This document shows, piece by piece, positions 35,784 through 45,828 of a stretch of DNA of 64,000 nt. Each line of letters begins with the position of its first letter. Within the stretch, counting starts at the first letter, position 1. The notes beneath the pieces were generated by a model, which was not told where the DNA came from, did no database searches, and was given only the letters and a program-made list of their open reading frames with translations. This stretch comes from Escherichia coli (GTDB taxonomy: Bacteria; Pseudomonadota; Gammaproteobacteria; Enterobacterales; Enterobacteriaceae). A program made the position numbers and the translations under genes. Location: assembly GCF_050920415.1 (NCBI RefSeq), contig NZ_CP169309.1. One strand, 5' to 3'.

Positions 35784-36498
35784 GTTAATAAATGGCAATG
35801 CTATCAAAATGACAAGCATTGAAATCGCTGAGTTGGTGGGTAAGCGTCAAGACAATGTGAAACGTACCATCGAAACGCTGGCTAAAAATGGTGTTATCCG
35901 GCTTCCTCAAATTGAGGTTTCCGAAAGAATCAATAACTTAGGGTTCAATGTTCAGTACGAGCATTACGTCTTCGAAGGCGAACAAGGTAAGCGAGACAGT
36001 ATTGTCGTTGTTGCCCAGTTGTCGCCGGAATTCACCGCTCGTCTTGTTGACCGTTGGCGAGAGCTTGAGGAAACTGCGGTTAATATCCCCAAAACGCTAC
36101 CAGAAGCGTTGCGCCTTGCTGCTGATCTTGCTGAGCAGAAAATGCAACTGGAAAACCAGCTCGCAATTGCCGCACCTAAAGTTGAGTTTGCCGATCGCGT
36201 TGGCGAGGCCAGCGGAATTTTGATTGGAAACTTTGCAAAGGTTGTCGGTATTGGTCCAAACAAACTGTTTGCGTGGATGCGTGATCACAAAATCCTTATT
36301 GCTTCAGGTTCCCGGCGCAATGTGCCAATGCAGGAATATATGGATCGCGGCTATTTCACAGTGAAAGAAACAGCGGTCAACACAAATCACGGAATACAGA
36401 TATCGTTCACCACAAAAATCACCGGGCGTGGTCAACAGTGGCTGACCAGAAAGCTGCTCGATAACGGAATGCTGAAAGTAACAGGGGAGGCTGCTTAA
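35776..36498 (+). CDS. Rha-family phage regulatory / antirepressor-like protein
   Basis: 240 aa; N-terminal Rha-like domain; position in nin region. Confidence 0.55.
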   Translation: MNELINGNAIKMTSIEIAELVGKRQDNVKRTIETLAKNGVIRLPQIEVSERINNLGFNVQYEHYVFEGEQGKRDSIVVVAQLSPEFTARLVDRWRELEETAVNIPKTLPEALRLAADLAEQKMQLENQLAIAAPKVEFADRVGEASGILIGNFAKVVGIGPNKLFAWMRDHKILIASGSRRNVPMQEYMDRGYFTVKETAVNTNHGIQISFTTKITGRGQQWLTRKLLDNGMLKVTGEAA

Positions 36499-36788
36499 TG
36501 GCTAACCTACGCAAAGAAGCGCGCAACAGAGAATGCCAGGTACGTATTTACGGCGTATGCAATGGCAATCCTGAAACTACAGTTCTGGCACATTACCGGA
36601 TGGCTGGAATTTGCGGAACGGGAATGAAACCTGACGACCTGATCGGCGCATGGGCTTGTAGTGACTGCCACGCGGAGATCGACCGACGCACAAGGATTCT
36701 CGACAACAAAGACGCCAGACTTTACCACCTCGAAGGCGTGATAAGGACGCAGGCGATACTGCTGAAGGAGGGGAAGATTAAGCCATGA
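36498..36788 (+). CDS. NinX-like protein (Cys-rich)
   Basis: 96 aa with CxxC and CxxxxH; nin-region position. Confidence 0.5.
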   Translation: MANLRKEARNRECQVRIYGVCNGNPETTVLAHYRMAGICGTGMKPDDLIGAWACSDCHAEIDRRTRILDNKDARLYHLEGVIRTQAILLKEGKIKP

Positions 36789-37146
36789 ACGAATATCAGT
36801 TTGTGCTTCCATACCCGCCGTCGCTGAACACCTACTGGCGAAGACGGGGAGTCAATACTACATCAGCGATAAAGGCCAGAAATACCGAAAAGACGTTCAG
36901 CAAATCATCCGCCAACTTAAGTTAGACATTTTCACCAAATCACGACTCCGCATCAAAGTCATCGCAGACGTTCCAGACTCCCGCCGCCGCGACCTCGATA
37001 ACATCCTGAAGGGTTTACTCGACTCCCTTATCCACGCCGGATTTGCGGAAGACGACGAGCAATTCGATGACATTCGCGTAATTCGTGGTGTGAAAGTACC
37101 AGGCGGACGGCTTGGAATAAAAATCACCGAACTGGAGAACGTATGA
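36785..37146 (+). pseudogene. rusA: RusA-family Holliday junction resolvase, interrupted by a frameshift near 36845-36850
   Basis: Frame 1 gives MNEYQFVLPYPPSLNTYWRRRG then a stop at 36923; the +2 frame continues SQYYISDKGQKYR...DSRRRDLDNILKGLLD...GGRLGIKITELENV to 37146; G-run at junction. Confidence 0.7.
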
Positions 37147-37331
37147 ACGCCACAATTCAAACGATACCAGAGCTTCTTATCCAGACACGAGGCAATCAGA
37201 CCGAAGTGGCGAGGATGCTTTCCTGCGCAAGAGGAACAGTGCTCAAGTACAACCGAGACAGCAAAGGCGAGCGTCACGTAATAGTTAACGGCGTCCTGAT
37301 GGTCAAACAGGGCAAAAGGGGAAGGCCATGA
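37143..37331 (+). CDS. ninH: NinH-like protein
   Basis: IPELLIQTRGNQTEVARMLSCARGTVLKY resembles lambda NinH. Confidence 0.7.
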   Translation: MNATIQTIPELLIQTRGNQTEVARMLSCARGTVLKYNRDSKGERHVIVNGVLMVKQGKRGRP

Positions 37332-37951
37332 GACTAGAAAGCGTAGCTAAATTTCATTCGCCAAAAAGCCCGATGATGAGTGACTCACCACGGGCCACGG
37401 CTTCTGACTCTCTTTCCGGTACTGATGTGATGGCTGCTATGGGGATGGCGCAATCACAAGCCGGATTCGGAATGGCTGCATTCTGTGGTAAGCACGAACT
37501 CAGCCAGAACGACAAACAAAAGGCTATCAACTATCTGATGCAATTTGCACACAAGGTATCGGGGAAATACCGGGGTGTGGCAAAGCTCGAAGGAAATACT
37601 AAGGCAAAGGTACTGCAAGTGCTCGCAACATTCGCTTATGCTGATTATTGCCGTAGTGCCGCGACGCCGGGCGCAAGATGCAGAGATTGCCACGGTACAG
37701 GCCGTGCGGTTGATATAGCCAAAACAGAGCAGTGGGGGAGAGTTGTTGAGAAAGAGTGCGGAAGATGCAAAGGTGTCGGCTATTCAAGAATGCCAGCAAG
37801 CGCTGCATATCGCGCTGTAACGATGCTAATCCCAAACCTTACCCAACCCACCTGGTCACGCACTGTTAAGCCGCTGTATGACGCTCTGGTGGTGCAATGC
37901 CACAAAGAAGAGTCAATCGCAGACAACATTTTGAATGCGGTCACACGTTAG
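37328..37951 (+). CDS. Q: late-gene antiterminator Q, lambda type
   Basis: 207 aa, matches remembered lambda Q including zinc-finger cysteines. Confidence 0.9.
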   Translation: MRLESVAKFHSPKSPMMSDSPRATASDSLSGTDVMAAMGMAQSQAGFGMAAFCGKHELSQNDKQKAINYLMQFAHKVSGKYRGVAKLEGNTKAKVLQVLATFAYADYCRSAATPGARCRDCHGTGRAVDIAKTEQWGRVVEKECGRCKGVGYSRMPASAAYRAVTMLIPNLTQPTWSRTVKPLYDALVVQCHKEESIADNILNAVTR

Positions 37952-37993
37952 CAGCATGATTGCCACGGATGGCAACATATTAACGGCATGATA

Positions 37994-38022
37994 TTGACTT
38001 TTTGAATAAAGTTGGGTAAATT
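37994..38022 (+). promoter_or_regulatory. late promoter pR' (-35 TTGACT, -10 TAAATT, 17-bp spacer) with qut region
   Basis: Near-identical to remembered lambda pR' sequence. Confidence 0.65.
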
Positions 38023-38058
38023 TGACTCAACGATGGATAAATGCACTCGTTAAATAAA

Positions 38059-38085
38059 GCCCTGAGTTAATAGCTGGGGCTTTTT
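38059..38085 (+). terminator. hairpin plus T5 downstream of pR' (candidate tR')
   Basis: GCCCTG...CTGGGGC stem followed by TTTTT. Confidence 0.4.
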
Positions 38086-38383
38086 GCGTTTTAAGCACGA
38101 CCTTTCTGAAAGCGCATCAAACCAAATACCAGACAGACCAAAATAATCACCTTATCCGCTGTGGCTACGGTGCGGTGTGCTTTGCATAAAAGAAAACCAG
38201 CTCAATGGCTGGCTTCGTGAAAGCGGGTGGCAAGAGGTTGCGCTAACAACCTCATGCCGTTTTGCCCGTGCATATCGGTCACGAACAAATCTGATTACTA
38301 AACACAGTAGCCTGGATTTGTTCTATCAGTAATCGACCTTATTCCTAATTAAATAGAGCAAATCCCCTTATTGGGGGTAAGAC

Positions 38384-38707
38384 ATGAAGATGCCAGAAAA
38401 ACATGACCTGTTAGCCGCCATTCTCGCGGCAAAGGAACAAGGCATCGGGGCAATCCTTGCGTTTGCAATGGCGTACCTTCGCGGCAGATATAATGGCGGT
38501 GCGTTTACAAAAACAGTAATCGACGCAACGATGTGCGCCATTATCGCCTGGTTCATTCGTGACCTTCTCGACTTCGCCGGACTAAGTAGCAATCTCGCTT
38601 ATATAACGAGCGTGTTCATCGGCTACATCGGTACTGACTCGATTGGTTCGCTTATCAAACGCTTCGCTGCTAAAAAAGCCGGAGTAGAAGATGGTGGAAA
38701 TCAATAA
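38384..38707 (+). CDS. S: holin/antiholin S (dual-start MKMPEK)
   Basis: 107 aa, matches lambda S. Confidence 0.95.
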
Positions 38708-39167
38708 TCAACGTAAGGCGTTCCTCGATATGCTGGCGTGGTCAGAGGGAACTGATAACGGACGTCAGAAAACCAGAAATCATGGTTATGACGTCATTGT
38801 AGGCGGGGGGCTATTCACTGATTACTCCGATCACCCTCGCAAACTTGTCACGCTAAACCCCAAACTCAAATCAACAGCAGCCGGACGTTACCAGCTTCTT
38901 TCCCGTTGGTGGGATGCCTACCGCAAGCAGCTTGGCCTGAAAGACTTCTCTCCGAAAAGTCAGGACGCTGTGGCATTGCAGCAGATTAAGGAGCGTGGCG
39001 CTTTGCCGATGATTGATCGCGGTGATATTCGTCAGGCAATCGACCGTTGCAGCAATATCTGGGCTTCACTGCCGGGCGCTGGTTATGGCCAGTTCGAGCA
39101 TAAGGCTGACAGCCTGATTGCAAAATTCAAAGAAGCAGGCGGAACGGTTAGAGAGATTGAGGTATGA
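38691..39167 (+). CDS. R: endolysin R (lytic transglycosylase)
   Basis: 158 aa, matches lambda R. Confidence 0.95.
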
Positions 39168-39601
39168 GCAGAGTCACCGCGATTATCTCCGCTCTGATTA
39201 TCTGCATCGTCGTCTGTCTGTCATGGGCGGTCAATCATTACCGTGATAACGCCATCGCCTACAAAGAACAGCGCGATAAGGCCGCATCCACAATCGCTGA
39301 CATGCAGAAGCGTCAACGTGATGTAGCAGAACTTGACGCCAGATACACAAAGGAGCTTGCTGATGCTAATGCGACTATCGAAAGTCTCCGTGCTGATGTT
39401 TCTGCTGGTCGTAAGCGCCTGCAAGTCGCCGCCACCTGTGCAAAGTCAACGACCGGAGCCAACAGCATGGGCGATGGAGAAAGCCCAAGACTTACAGCAG
39501 ATGCTGAACTCAATTATTACCGTCTCAGAAGTGGAATCGACAAGATAACCGCGCAGGTTAACTACCTGCAGGAATACATCAGGACGCAATGCCTGAAATG
39601 A
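39164..39601 (+). CDS. Rz: i-spanin Rz
   Basis: 145 aa; N-terminal TM then coiled coil; lambda Rz-like. Confidence 0.85.
39333..39548 (+). CDS. Rz1: o-spanin Rz1 lipoprotein embedded in Rz (+1 frame); true start probably an internal Met
   Basis: Lipobox LVVSAC followed by Pro-rich segment. Confidence 0.55.
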
Positions 39602-39635
39602 TGGGCGATGAAAACCAAAAAACAGGAGCAATACA

Positions 39636-39910
39636 TGACTAAGCTTTATCACCGCATCTCAACTTTTCTCTCTGGGTGCTGGGCGTTTATCACGTCTATT
39701 TCGTTCGCCATCTTTAGTTTCGGTAGCACAGCATGCTCGCTTAGTCGGGGTATGTGGCGTGCTATTTCAGCACTAGCGCCGAAATTTTTACCTGAAAAGG
39801 CTGTTTGGCGAATTGTAGAGCGAATGTGTAGTGAGAGCGTTCGCGAGAAGATTAACGTATTTGGGCGTCATCCTCGAAATACAGGCGCATTGTGCAGTTC
39901 GTTACTGTAG
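39636..39910 (+). CDS. small hypothetical membrane protein, 91 aa
   Basis: ATG with AGGAG SD 6 nt upstream; hydrophobic N-terminus. Confidence 0.35.
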
Positions 39911-40449
39911 TCATTACAAAGCCCATCAATGGGTGGGCTTGATAATGAAACCGGAATTTATTCTGGGCCACCAGTTAACGGCAGTACAGCGAAACAACCC
40001 AAGCCAGTAAGTGGGGAAATAACACTGGCAGCCACTGAAAGATGAACCTCCTGCCTTATGGCAAAAAAGATTCTTTGTGGTGGCGGACTGATGGAAAGAC
40101 ATCCACTGAATCGATGATAAACAAGTGGAATAGGTTGCGATGGTTTCCGTGAACAAAGATCCGAAGGAAGGCGTTGAATACATCACTGGTGCTGATGGTG
40201 TGAAAAGGCCAATGGCTTATTACAAAGCTGCTGAAGAGAGGGCAAGAATGGAAAATCCCCCTAAATGCGGATCATTTTTCGACATGCTGGACCTTCAATG
40301 GAAGTTGTGAACAACTAACAGGTCGCTCAGGCGGCCTTTTTTATTGCCATCACAAAAGCCATTCCCTACATAGTGGCTTTGATAATGGCTTATACCCTAC
40401 ACGGGATAACTTAACTGATATCCCTTTTAACGGATAAACGGAGCCAACA

Positions 40450-40692
40450 ATGGCAGAGATTATTCCCATGACTGAAGAACAGAAGTTCAAGTTAGAAATT
40501 TACCGACTGCTATCTAAGAACAATTCAGCGGCAGAGGAAGCTTTTGCATTCATTGGTGCTGACCAACTGAAACTGGAATTGTTCAAGTTGCACTACAACG
40601 ATGGCGGTGCAAATCCAGACTTCACATCTCGCACTATCGAAGCGGTGCGTAAATCGAAGGAAGCGTTAGACCTGTTCACTACCGGAGCATAA
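40450..40692 (+). CDS. hypothetical protein upstream of terminase, 80 aa
   Basis: ORF with plausible start. Confidence 0.45.
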   Translation: MAEIIPMTEEQKFKLEIYRLLSKNNSAAEEAFAFIGADQLKLELFKLHYNDGGANPDFTSRTIEAVRKSKEALDLFTTGA

Positions 40693-40771
40693 ACATGGCA
40701 ACTCAAGGTTTCGACAACCCATCCAAATTCCGCGATGAATGGGATAAGCAAGCAGAAGGGAAATAATCAAT

Positions 40772-41260
40772 ATGGCAGCACCAAAGGGCAACCGATTTTG
40801 GGAGGCCCGCAGTAGTCATGGGCGAAATCCTAAATTCGAATCGCCTGAGGCGCTGTGGGCTGCTTGTTGTGAATACTTCGAGTGGGTGGAAGCTAACCCG
40901 CTATGGGAGATGAAGGCGTTCTCGTATCAGGGTGAAGTAATACAAGAGCCTATCGCCAAGATGCGAGCGATGACCATTACCGGCCTCACTCTGTTCATTG
41001 ATGTGACGCTTGAAACATGGCGCACATATCGCCTGCGAGAAGATTTATCTGAAGTCGTTACGCGAGCAGAACAGGTCATCTACGACCAGAAATTCTCTGG
41101 CGCAGCCGCTGACCTTCTCAACGCTAACATCATCGCCCGTGATTTGGGCCTCAAAGAGCAGTCGCAAGTTGAAGACGTGACACCTGATAAGGGAGATCGC
41201 GATAAGCGGCGCTCTCGTATCAAGGAGCTATTCAACCGTGGAACTGGACGCGATTCTTGA
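40772..41260 (+). CDS. terminase small subunit (P22 gp3 type)
   Basis: 162 aa, recognised as P22 gp3. Confidence 0.85.
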
Positions 41261-42737
41261 TAACCTGAGCGACGAAGAGCAAATCGAGTTGCTCGAGCTA
41301 CTCGAAGAAGAAGAGAACTACCGGAACACACACCTGCTATATGAATTTACGCCATACAGCAAGCAGCGTGAGTTCATCGACGCCGGGCATGACTATCCAG
41401 AGCGATGTTTTATGGCTGGTAACCAGCTTGGTAAGTCATTTACTGGTGCTGCTGAAGTCGCGTTTCACCTTACCGGTCGTTATCCGGGCACAAAAGGCTA
41501 TCCTGCTGATGGTAAATATGGCGGTGAGTGGAAAGGTAAGCGTTTCTATGAGCCTGTTGTCTTCTGGATTGGTGGAGAGACAAACGAGACTGTAACCAAA
41601 ACGACTCAACGCATCCTGTGCGGTCGTATCGAAGAGAATGGTGAGCCAGGCTACGGTTCCATACCGAAAGAAGACATCATTAGCTGGAAGAAGTCTCCTT
41701 TCTTTCCGAACCTTGTTGATCATCTTCTGGTTAAGCATCACACGGCTGATGGCGTTGAAGATGGCATTTCAATCTGCTACTTCAAACCATACTCGCAAGG
41801 CCGTGCTCGCTGGCAGGGTGACACAATCCACGGCGTGTGGTTTGACGAAGAGCCACCATACAGCATTTATGGCGAAGGTCTTACCCGTACCAACAAATAC
41901 GGGCAATTCTCAATTCTGACGTTTACCCCGCTGATGGGGATGTCTGACGTTGTTACCAAGTTCCTGAAGAATCCCAGCAAGTCTCAGAAAGTGGTCAACA
42001 TGACCATCTATGACGCTGAGCACTACACCGACGAGCAGAAAGAGCAAATCATCGCATCCTATCCTGAGCATGAGAGAGAGGCGCGTGCTCGCGGTATTCC
42101 TACGATGGGTAGTGGTCGAATCTTCCAGATACCGGAAGAGACGATTAAGTGTCAGCCGTTCGAGTGTCCTGATCACTTCTACGTAATTGGCGGTATGGAT
42201 TTCGGATGGGATCACCCGCAGGCGCAGGTTCAGCTTTGGTGGGATAAGGACGCAGACATAATCTACCTTTCACGCGTTTGGAAGGCGAAAGAAAAGACAG
42301 CCGTTCAGGCGTGGGGAGCTGTTAAACCATGGGCGCATAAAGTGCCAACCGCATGGCCTCATGACGGAAACCAGCACGAGAAGGGCGGCGGTGAGCAGCT
42401 CAAAGGGCAGTATGCGGACGCTGGATTTATGATGTTGCAGGAGCATGCGACATGGCCTGATGGCGGTAACGCTGTTGAGCCTGGCATCACTGAATTGCGA
42501 GACATGATGCTCGACGGTCGCTTCAAAGTATTCAACACCTGTGAGCCATTCTTTGAGGAGTTCCGCCTCTATCACCGTGATGAAAACGGGAAAATCGTCA
42601 AGCTTAACGACGACGTGCTATCCGCCGTTCGCTATGCATACATGATGCGCCGCTTCGCAAAAATGATGCGCGACATCAAAAAGCCAAAAGAGAAAAAGAT
42701 ACCAGCCCCAATCAGGCCCATCGCACGGAGAACTTAA
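41238..42737 (+). CDS. terminase large subunit (P22 gp2 type)
   Basis: 499 aa, recognised as P22 gp2. Confidence 0.9.
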
Positions 42738-44903
42738 ATGGCCGACGAAAACAGACTCAATTCCATTCTGTGTAAGTTTGACGCAGACTGGATGGCGAGC
42801 GATGAAGCCAGAACCGAGGCGACAAATGACCTGTATTTTAGCCGAGTGTCGCAATGGGATGACTGGCTATCAAACTACACCACCCTGCAATATCGCGGAC
42901 AATTCGATGTTGTTCGCCCGGTGGTCAGGAAGCTGGTCGCAGAGATGCGCCGGAACCCTATCGATGTTCTCTTCAGACCAAAAGACGGCGCTAATCCTGA
43001 TGCTGCCGATGTGCTGATGGGGATGTATCGTACTGATATGCGCCATAATACGGCAAAAATTGCCGTTAACGTTGGCGTTCGTGAGCAGATAGAGTCAGGC
43101 GTTGGTGCATGGCGTCTGGTCACGCAGTACGAAGACAACGATCCAACAAGCAACAATCAGGTAATCCGACGCCTGCCAATCCATGAAGCCTGCTCACACG
43201 TCATATGGGACGCCAACAGCAAGCAGATGGATAAGAGCGACGCTAAGCACTGCACGGTGATTAACGCCTTGTCGCGCAATGGCTGGAAAGAGTTCGCAGA
43301 GGATTACGGTATTGATCCGGACACGCTGCCATCTTTCCAGAATCCAAACGATACATGGCTGTTTCCGTGGGTATCGAATGATGTCGTCTACGTCGCTGAG
43401 TATTACGAGGTCGAAGAGAAGAAAGAGAAAGTCTTCATCTACCGCGACCCGCTGACAGGTGAGCCGGTCAGCTATTACCAGCAGGATATCAAAGACGTCA
43501 TCGACGACCTGGCTAATCGTGGATTCATTAAGGTAGCAGAGCGCAAGGTGAAGCGTCGGCGTGTGTATAAGTCGATCGTCACCTGCACGCAGATACTGAA
43601 AGACCGCGAGAAGATAGCCGGAGAGCATATTCCAATCGTTCCAGTATATGGCGAATGGTCATTCGCTGGTGACAAGGAGTGCTACGAAGGAGTGGTAAGG
43701 CTGACGAAAGACGGTCAACGCCTTCGTAACATGATCATGTCATTCAACGCCGATATTGTTGCTCGTTCACCGAAGAAGAAACCGACCTTCTTCCCTGAGC
43801 AAATCGAAGGCTACGAATACATGTACGGTGGAAATGATGACTATCCGTACTATCTGCAGAACAGGACCGATGAAAACGGCAACGACCTGCCGATTGGTCC
43901 AATCTCCTACATGGAAAACCCTGAAGTGCCGCAAGCCAACGCTTACATGCTTGAGGCTGCCACCAACGCAGTGAAAGAGGTGGCTAGTCTTGGTGTGGAT
44001 GCGCAGGCAGCAAACTCTCAGGTCGCTTTCGATACCGTCAATCAACTGAACATGCGGGCAGACCTTGAGACATACGTGTTTCAGGATAACCTTGCTACCG
44101 CAATGCGACGTGATGGCGAGATTTATGCTTCAATGGTCAATGATATTTATGACGTTCCTCGTCATGTAACGCTGACACTTGAAGATGGTAGCGAGAAAGA
44201 CGTTCAACTCTACGCGCAAGTTGTAGATTACCAGTCCGGTAATGTGGTCACACTCAACGACATTCGCGGTCGCTATGAGTGCTATACCGACGTTGGACCA
44301 TCCTTCCAGAGTATGAAGGAACAGAACCGCGCAGAGATTCAGGAGTTACTCACCAAGGTTCCGCAAGGTACTCCAGAGTTCCAGATGCTGATGTTGCAAT
44401 ACTTCACGCTGCTTGACGGTAAAGGCGTCGAGATGATGCGAGAGTACGCGAACAAGCAACTGGTGATGATGTGGCTGAAGAAACCAGAAACACCTGAAGA
44501 GATGGAGATGGTGCAACAGGCGCAACAGCAGCCGCAGCAGCCATCAGCAGAGCAAATTCAGGCGCAGGGTATCCTTCTGCAAGGTCAGGCTGAATTGATC
44601 AAGGCAGAGAACCAACAGGCGCAGATTCAGGTTGAAGCCGCCAAGGTTGAAGCCCAAAACCAACTCAACGCCGCGAAGATTGCAGAAATCTTCAACAATA
44701 TGGACCTCGACAAGCAGGCAGAACTGCGTGAGTACCTCAAGCTCGTAGGTCAATTCCAGCAACAGCGCAGCAAAGATGCTCGTGCTAACGCTGAGCTGCT
44801 TCTTAAAGATGCAGACCAGACTCATTCACAACGCATGGATTTCGCGAATCTTATGCGTCAAGTTCAAATCCCCTCCGGCGGAGTAGCCGAGACACCTCAA
44901 TAA
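42738..44903 (+). CDS. portal protein (P22 gp1 type)
   Basis: 721 aa, recognised as P22 portal. Confidence 0.9.
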
Positions 44904-44916
44904 GAGAGAGTTAACC

Positions 44917-45828
44917 ATGGACCAAACCACCGACATTCAGGCTTCTGAAGAATTAACCCTGCCCGGCAATCATGCAGCGGCATCTGCTGATGGCTTAGTT
45001 GTCGATAATGCCAACGACAGCGCAGGTCAGGAAGAAGGCTTTGAGATTGTCCTGAAAGACGATGAGAAACCAAAACAAGACCCGGCAACTAATGCTGAAT
45101 TTGCCCGTCGCCGCATCGAACGCAAACGCCAGCGTGAGCTTGAGCAGCAGATGGAAGCGGTTAAGCGTGGAGAGTTGCCGGAGCACCTGCGGGTGAACCC
45201 TGAGTTACCAAAACAACCAGACCCTAACGATTATCTTTCCGAAGATGCACTGGCTAAGTACGACTATGACCAGAGCCGCGCACTGGCTGCCTTCCAGCAG
45301 GCAAACAGTGAATGGCAGATCAAGGCCATGGACGCACGAAGCCAGGCTGTCGCCGAGCAGGGTCGCAAAACTCAGGAGTTCACCCAGCAATCAGCGCAAT
45401 ACGTCGAGGCAGCCCGTAAGCACTACGACGCAGCGGAAAAGCTCAATATCCCTGACTATCAGGAGAAAGAGGATGCATTCATGCAACTGGTGCCGCCAGC
45501 AGTCGGTGCCGACATCATGCGCCTCTTCCCGGAGAAATCCGCTGCTCTCATGTATCACCTTGGTGCTAATCCTGAGAAAACACGCCAGTTACTGGCGATG
45601 GACGGGCAATCCGCGCTGATTGAACTCACTCGACTGTCAGAACGTTTAACTCTCAAGCCTCGAGCCAAGTCTGTTTCAGAAGCCCCGTTACCTGATGAAC
45701 CCATTCAGGGACACGCTGTTGCTGCAAATATCTCTGCGATTGAAAAGCAGATGGAAGCGGCAGCAAACAAAGGTGATGTAGAGACGTACCGCAAGCTTAA
45801 GGCGCAACTGAATAAAGGAATTCGATAA
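44917..45828 (+). CDS. scaffolding protein (P22 gp8 type)
   Basis: 303 aa, recognised as P22 scaffold. Confidence 0.85.

Follow-up and report, generated by a model that had tools for sequence, protein, structure and literature searches.

What does a lambdoid prophage carry between its lysis genes and its packaging genes? The interval studied here lies in a 64-kb stretch of Escherichia coli DNA (64,000 nucleotides; 'the window'), which holds a lambdoid prophage whose packaging genes are of the P22 type. According to the original prediction, the lysis genes were followed by an accessory slot with one small hydrophobic ORF and then a stretch lacking convincing genes (about 540 bp, 39911-40449), which might conceal a small RNA or a moron. 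The stretch thought to lack genes in fact holds a conserved gene, orf56, and its terminator. The 229 bp and 139 bp left over outside orf56 are non-coding and strongly conserved.

The resulting layout (Table 1) runs from orf91 and hairpin 1 through a core of ~140 nt to a leader with orf56 and its terminator, and ends with hairpin 2 and block B. In our judgment the interval is probably a lysis-to-terminase accessory region in which two cargo cassettes lie between conserved, structured, non-coding linkers; we hold this description with the same moderate confidence as the proposal for expression, hairpins and linkers set out below, the two being judged together. The cargo has a GC content of 45-47%, against 46.5% for the window, and its composition is thus not distinctive.

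Table 1. Positions of the lysis-to-terminase features in the window.
Feature	Position	Strand	Basis or remark
Q	37328-37951		upstream context
Holin	38384-38707		upstream context
Endolysin	38691-39167		upstream context
Rz	39164-39601		directly before orf91
Shine-Dalgarno sequence of orf91, AGGAG	39624-39628	+	6 nt 5' of the ATG; read from the sequence
orf91, 91 aa	39635-39910	+	phrog_34701 match; 50 homologues
Hairpin 1	39912-39947	+	inverted repeat, fold, covariation; begins 1 nt after the orf91 stop
Conserved non-coding core (3' two-thirds of block A)	39965-40103	+	P22G homology
Cargo-2 leader, 36 nt	40104-40139	+	weak AGG ribosome-binding site at 40131-40133 (inside TAG-G)
orf56, 56 aa	40140-40310	+	phrog_5425 match; PGAP-annotated in E. 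coli AF14
Intrinsic terminator, AGGUCGC-UCAG-GCGGCCU then UUUUUUAU	40320-40345	+	scan and fold
Hairpin 2	40348-40387	+	fold, covariance model, covariation
Remainder of block B, with a small GGGAUA...UAUCCC+UUUU hairpin	40388-40449	+	hairpin from fold
GGAG ribosome-binding site of the DUF2560 gene, within block B	40440-40443	+	
DUF2560 gene (P22 ORF80 type)	40450-40692	+	Pfam PF10834, 5.5e-37; first gene past the slot
P22-type small terminase	40772-41260		then large terminase, portal

Two conserved small genes

For the first ORF, a hydrophobic product of 91 residues and a good Shine-Dalgarno sequence had been claimed. The ORF, its AGGAG and its conservation stood, while the start had to be moved from 39636 to the ATG at 39635 and the hydrophobicity proved borderline. 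orf91 matched phrog_34701 end to end (E = 3e-55), and across related prophages it is conserved, with homologues in E. coli, Enterobacter and Citrobacter that are 55-97% identical and nearly all 90-91 aa long. The Shine-Dalgarno context, ACAGGAGCAA-ACATG, also precedes the Enterobacter and other homologues. The protein is basic (net charge +8), with a variable N-terminal half and a C-terminal half whose last 35 residues are nearly invariant (WRIVERMCSESVREKINVFGRHPRNTGALCS(P/S)LL). In this C-terminal half, comparison with a 70%-identical Enterobacter homologue gave 19 synonymous and 3 non-synonymous codon changes; the differences fell 4/1/21 by codon position, that is, 21 of 26 at third positions. 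Such a bias argues that the constraint acts on the protein and not on an overlapping nucleic-acid element. Judged by this pattern of substitution, orf91 is a genuine coding gene under purifying selection.

The position of orf91 after the spanin genes is constant. It lies directly 3' of the spanin gene and 5' of the terminase in 4 independent contexts with 3 unrelated types of lysis cassette, and it occupies this place in HK140 and N7 too; in other phages the place is taken by KilA-N, Rha, gp73 or nothing. The 19-residue Kyte-Doolittle maximum, 1.69 at residues 11-29, lies just above the usual threshold of 1.6 and would correspond to a borderline membrane helix. Since the maxima within the family range from 1.18 to 1.80, the label 'membrane ORF' is plausible without being secure. 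The AF2 model is helical and too weak for a fold search (pLDDT 61, pTM 0.24). Neither orf91 nor orf56 had a match in Pfam, NCBIfam or PADLOC, and neither had a usable sequence-profile match in the PDB, the best match in the searches for the two ORFs being at E = 0.56. Our best guess, suggested by the constant linkage to spanin genes and the hydrophobic N-terminus, is that orf91 may encode a membrane-associated accessory of lysis or exclusion.

The homologue of orf91 in E. coli AF14 (NZ_OZ546925.1, L131 1534-1809), the closest complete E. coli genome, is left unannotated by PGAP, which does annotate the orf56 homologue there, as 61 aa. An Enterobacter prophage (L132 4623-4710) has a tandem order of ORF plus hairpin and no core: an orf91 homologue, hairpin 1, an 83-aa ORF, a terminator-like hairpin and a variant of hairpin 2 ending in six U.

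The second gene had been glimpsed as a possible 53-residue peptide at 40150-40311 starting with GTG. It is a conserved gene with a different start: the GTG is at 40149, and the homologues begin M-V/F-S, which places the start at the ATG at 40140. The forms of 61-62 aa annotated in some genomes are ruled out here by the in-frame TAG at 40131-40133. orf56 matched phrog_5425 (E = 9e-41), and its homologues extend from E. coli to Yersinia, where the copies are 61-75% identical; they share an invariant motif, KEGVEYITGADGVKRPM.YYK, also written KEGVEYITGxDGVKRPM. By these family matches orf56 is a genuine conserved gene, and its product is predicted to be a small soluble protein. The AF2 model (pLDDT 70) has a β-hairpin and two helices, and a Foldseek search with it against the PDB returned nothing at E ≤ 0.001.

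The terminator that follows orf56 consists of a 7-bp stem (40320-40337) and six T, according to the terminator scan and folding. The same terminator stands 3' of orf56 homologues in Yersinia prophages and in a phage that has the gene between Q and holin, and it is also found 3' of other cargos in this slot. This co-inheritance suggests that orf56 and its terminator move as one unit between accessory slots of the late operon.

An 86-aa ORF on the minus strand (39926-40186) was rejected; family searches gave no match, and its frame is disrupted by indels. Beyond the DUF2560 gene, the gap before the small terminase is occupied by a 23-codon ORF (40695-40766). In P22 and Kapi1 the same gap holds an unrelated 59-aa ORF (ORF59C), and it therefore looks like another small variable spot.

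A precise cargo junction and a non-coding core

How sharply is the cargo bounded? Pairwise comparison with seven phages, followed by comparison of about 130 loci gathered via an invariant 23-mer, supported the accessory slot that had been predicted after Rz/Rz1. Every insert starts directly 3' of GGAAAGACATC, which ends at 40103 (+83 from the probe), so that there is one junction nucleotide, and this is also the 5' boundary of the cargo-2 leader. In about 60% of 131 sequences the slot is empty, reduced to a 24-bp linker; in the others it is filled by an insert of 132-1333 bp, of which there are at least five unrelated kinds. The insert of the window is common to only about five loci, and the whole combination was found in 2 of 5426 complete E. 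coli genomes, parts of it in 2553. Across the aligned loci, therefore, the exchange of cargo is tied to a single exact position, 40103.

The commonest alternative cargo at this junction (e.g. Huey, L002 2732-3112, and the E. coli hits H94-H105) is called 'Gp49 family protein' in RefSeq. In phage Huey it is labelled 'anti-CRISPR protein' (annotation as given).

The sequence that ends at the junction is strikingly uniform. Over 130 loci, a sub-block of the core (40017-40103) shows 98-100% identity, against mostly ~80% for the adjoining DUF2560 gene; the remainder of block B is 92-99% conserved in most loci. Two peptides that might start within the core were considered and discarded: MNLLPYGKK... 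from 40042, whose ATG is ATA (40042-40044) in HK140-type copies, and MAKKILCGGG... from 40059, whose ATG is AAG (40059-40061) in several copies. In addition, a run of A (40062-40067) ranges from 5 to 8 A among copies, and 5' of this run the copies differ by a 1-nt indel. Given these lost start codons and frame-shifting indels between copies, the core is non-coding. RNAalifold predicts two conserved, invariant stems with ACCUCCU unpaired between them. No covariation was found in these stems, which hardly vary.

The earlier suggestion of a small RNA gained ground here, in that the core is 94.4% identical over 142 columns, on the same strand, to nt 45-186 of P22G. It also has the same map position, 3' of the cargo after Rz and 5' of the DUF2560/ORF80 gene. 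P22G is a putative plus-strand sncRNA of 204 nt that was reported in 2026 from small-RNA sequencing of P22-infected Salmonella, is annotated 'downstream of ORF201, no known function' (Table 2 of that paper) and is described there as a discrete species that abounds both in cells and in vesicles (PMC13397905). As an independent sRNA it rests on pile-ups of small-RNA reads only (PMC13397905). Segments at 44866-44900 and 45751-45802 partially match two other putative P22 sncRNAs, P22H and P22I (86% and 79% identity), and lie just 5' of portal-adjacent and coat-type genes, as in P22.

The core might then be a true trans-acting sRNA, homologous to P22G, which would regulate host or phage mRNAs through a site such as the single-stranded CCUCCU at 40047-40052, which resembles an anti-Shine-Dalgarno sequence; the slot would merely adjoin it. 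A discrete, abundant 204-nt species, conservation at the nucleotide level without coding capacity and the unpaired ACCUCCU of the predicted fold are all consistent with such a role. However, in our scans the core is bracketed by neither a promoter nor a terminator, and the ends of P22G are not those of the core: the 5' end lies inside the Rha coding sequence of P22, which is absent from the window, and the 3' end in the loop region of hairpin 2 of an empty slot. Thus the first 44 nt of P22G come from the Rha gene and its last 18 nt from the empty-slot linker, which is replaced by orf56 here. A P22G with such ends looks like a product of late-mRNA processing, and together with the unbracketed core they favor processing over an independent sRNA. 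The authors of the small-RNA study name no function or target for P22G (PMC13397905). A scan of RNA-duplex energies between the core and the whole window gave no outlying target (best z of -4 among 12,720 windows, with energies dominated by long loops), and Rfam offered no family when 36000-42000 was scanned with E values up to 1. We therefore regard a trans-acting sRNA as unlikely. P22G may instead be a processing product, and the core RNA of this prophage is putative.

Within the window, AUGGCAAAAAA of the core (40058-40068) is complementary at 10 of 11 nt to UUUAUUGCCAU (40340-40350), which covers the U-tract of the terminator and the foot of hairpin 2. Pairing of the two could be long-range or could reflect chance.

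A family of covarying hairpins on the late strand

Hairpins 1 and 2 belong to one family. Each has an outer stem of 5 bp (CAUUA/UAAUG), a CA/GA internal loop, an inner stem of 7 bp and a variable loop: CAUUA-CA-AAGCCCA / loop / UGGGCUU-GA-UAAUG for hairpin 1 and (GC)CAUCACA-AAAGCCA / loop / UGGCUUU-GAUAAUG(GC) for hairpin 2. We aligned 16 sequences, picked by their flanks or position (alignment A5). Over 12 pairs, 97.9% of the cells were paired and 8 pairs showed double changes; none of 500 shuffles reached any of the observed measures, and slid controls were 29-55% paired. Pairing includes G.U in 15 cells, and one stem position of hairpin 2 in empty slots forms the series A-U, G.U, G-C, which indicates that the structured strand has the sense of the late mRNA. 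The covariance model scored hairpin 1 at 53.8 bits on the plus strand vs. 16.7 on the minus strand and hairpin 2 at 45.7 bits, and in the 64-kb window it found these two sites only. Related phages have one or two hairpins of the family each, in late sense in every case. Copies also stand 3' of unrelated cargo genes in Enterobacter, Yersinia and Stx2 phages and in one unclassified contig, and in these copies the 7-nt flanks are kept while the inner stems are unrelated yet complementary. By these comparative measures, selection acts to keep the hairpins paired on the plus strand.

Short ORFs also start within the GATAATG motifs, with lengths of 21 aa and 9 aa in the window; they were rejected, because they differ in every lineage.

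Neither hairpin was called by the terminator scan. Both are without a U-tract, their tails being GAUAAUGAAA and GAUAAUGGCU. One Enterobacter copy of hairpin 2 ends in six U, and the family may on this account consist of eroded terminators.

The resemblance of this Enterobacter version to an ordinary terminator with a U-run also bears on whether the blocks and hairpins do anything at all. They might be functionless recombination linkers, or remnants of old moron terminators, homogenized by homologous exchange. The modular theory of lambdoid evolution and the use of short homologies by Rad52-like phage recombinases agree with such a reading, and the mosaic junctions do lie at block edges. Moreover, the core was seen only at ≥89% identity, in phages of E. 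coli, Salmonella, Shigella and Klebsiella, and an nhmmer search for diverged copies in the Enterobacter, Yersinia and Stx loci found none; with so narrow a host range, uniformity of the core could reflect recent recombinational spread and not function. Three observations nevertheless speak against purely passive linkers. Stems that covary across genera between fixed 7-nt flanks require that selection act on structure, the 87-nt sub-block has an identity of 98-100% next to a gene at ~80%, and a single junction nucleotide for all cargos is more regular than random crossovers would be. We consider passive linkers distinctly improbable.

At the other extreme, the core, the junction and the hairpins, which accompany cargo genes from E. 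coli to Yersinia, could together make up a cassette system dedicated to the late operons of lambdoid phages, with an RNA platform that would dock, process and express cargo. The system would be one so far undescribed, with a logic comparable to that of integron attC sites or of RNase III punctuation in T7. We think that such a system is quite unlikely.

Finally, it is very improbable that the hairpins are attC-like recombination sites which act as single-stranded DNA, mark the 3' ends of cassettes and capture cargo: the outer 7-mers (CATTACA/GATAATG) are indeed conserved and imperfectly inverted around a covarying center with a kept CA/GA loop, unrelated cargo ORFs often end 0-2 nt upstream of a hairpin and the insertion point is exact, but this point, 40103, is not at a hairpin, no dedicated recombinase was seen beside the slot and we know of none for it, two thirds of the hairpin-1 contexts lack an adjoining ORF end (the stop of an open frame of at least 40 codons adjoins hairpin 1 in 25 of 73 distinct contexts, with a gap of exactly 1 nt in 21 of the 25), and G.U-rich pairing in strict late-sense orientation fits RNA at least as well.

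Probable expression from the late transcript and kinship with morons

How would the two genes be expressed? A scan of the plus strand from 39000 to 41000 for promoters of the sigma-70 consensus, the only type covered, found none. The best candidate found by hand, TGGAAA-18-GATAAA (40092-40121), is missing the final T, and the promoter of pid, a small gene of P22, is equally non-consensus. The pid promoter, in the same region of P22, is weak and departs from the consensus (PMC8835761), so that block A may contain a weak promoter as well. Phage BTP1 carries the core. In BTP1 lysogens only bstA, cI, pid and gtrAC are listed as highly expressed, and the lytic genes of this phage are described as one polycistronic operon (PMC7067206).

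With no detectable promoter and everything on the late strand, we infer that orf91 and orf56 are probably translated from the late transcript, which starts at PR', is antiterminated by Q and would read through the terminator. In the lysogen, the terminator would block stray transcription into the packaging genes. The hairpins would probably serve as 3' punctuation of the late mRNA, as stabilizing or processing sites or as weak terminators, and such punctuation would explain why P22G accumulates as a discrete RNA when P22 infects. As DNA, the conserved linkers would provide short homology with which phage recombinases could swap cargo among lambdoid phages. Taken as a whole, this combination of late transcript, hairpin punctuation and recombination linkers is an explanation to which we give moderate credence, each of its rivals being less supported.

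A stabilizing or cleavage role of this kind could have parallels in the intercistronic RNase III hairpins of phage T7 and in REP-type hairpins that stabilize 3' ends. The likeness lies in hairpins with internal loops and no U-tract that stand between the cistrons of a long phage transcript, in the sense orientation only. The stems of 5 + 7 bp differ in being shorter than those of typical RNase III substrates.

The slot has the position of bor in lambda, a lipoprotein gene on the opposite strand that is expressed in lysogens. Both phages thus have an accessory gene immediately after Rz/Rz1, but there is no sequence relationship (orf91 and orf56 being without a Pfam match).

The morons of lambdoid phages, as defined by Juhala and Hendrix and reviewed in 'The moron comes of age' (PMC3594210), offer the closest general comparison, and a moron had in fact been suggested here. 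That suggestion holds up well, with orf56 and its terminator mobile and the pid moron of P22 in the same region, although no promoter of its own was found. As in morons, there is presence or absence among collinear phages, the junctions are sharp, the cargo lies between conserved genes of the late operon and orf56 has its own factor-independent terminator. In contrast, orf91 is followed by a hairpin without a U-tract and not by a terminator; moreover, no own promoter was detected in the sigma-70 scan and both ORFs have late sense, so that they may be expressed late and not in the lysogen. The locus is an ordinary lambdoid moron slot with an unusually clear non-coding architecture.

A described example is pid, an ORFan moron in the lysis-to-terminase region of P22 between ORF25 and ORF80, with a weak promoter, a transcription start at 40,880, a 5' UTR of 174 nt and a Rho-independent terminator that stabilizes its transcript (PMC3573128; PMC8835761). 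Like orf91 and orf56, it is a previously unannotated small gene in this region of a P22-type late operon. It differs in lying on the opposite strand, inserted inside block B and not at 40103, a position and strand that we confirmed in P22; no Pid homologue was found in the window by tblastn. The ATG of P22 ORF25 (AB426868.1, L008 1764-1865) lies in the loop of hairpin 2, and the ORF crosses the reverse complement of the pid terminator, which makes ORF25 probably a spurious gene call.

Accessory slots in the late operons of temperate phages carry toxins, exclusion factors and anti-defense genes. orf91, linked to spanin genes, and orf56, mobile together with its terminator, are members of real, widespread families and concrete candidates for tests. 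P22G is placed in context, its homologous core being a near-invariant non-coding element that is found in about 130 lambdoid loci and ends at a fixed cargo junction. Together with the covarying hairpins, the core would thus offer testable handles on how cargo of the late operon is expressed and exchanged.
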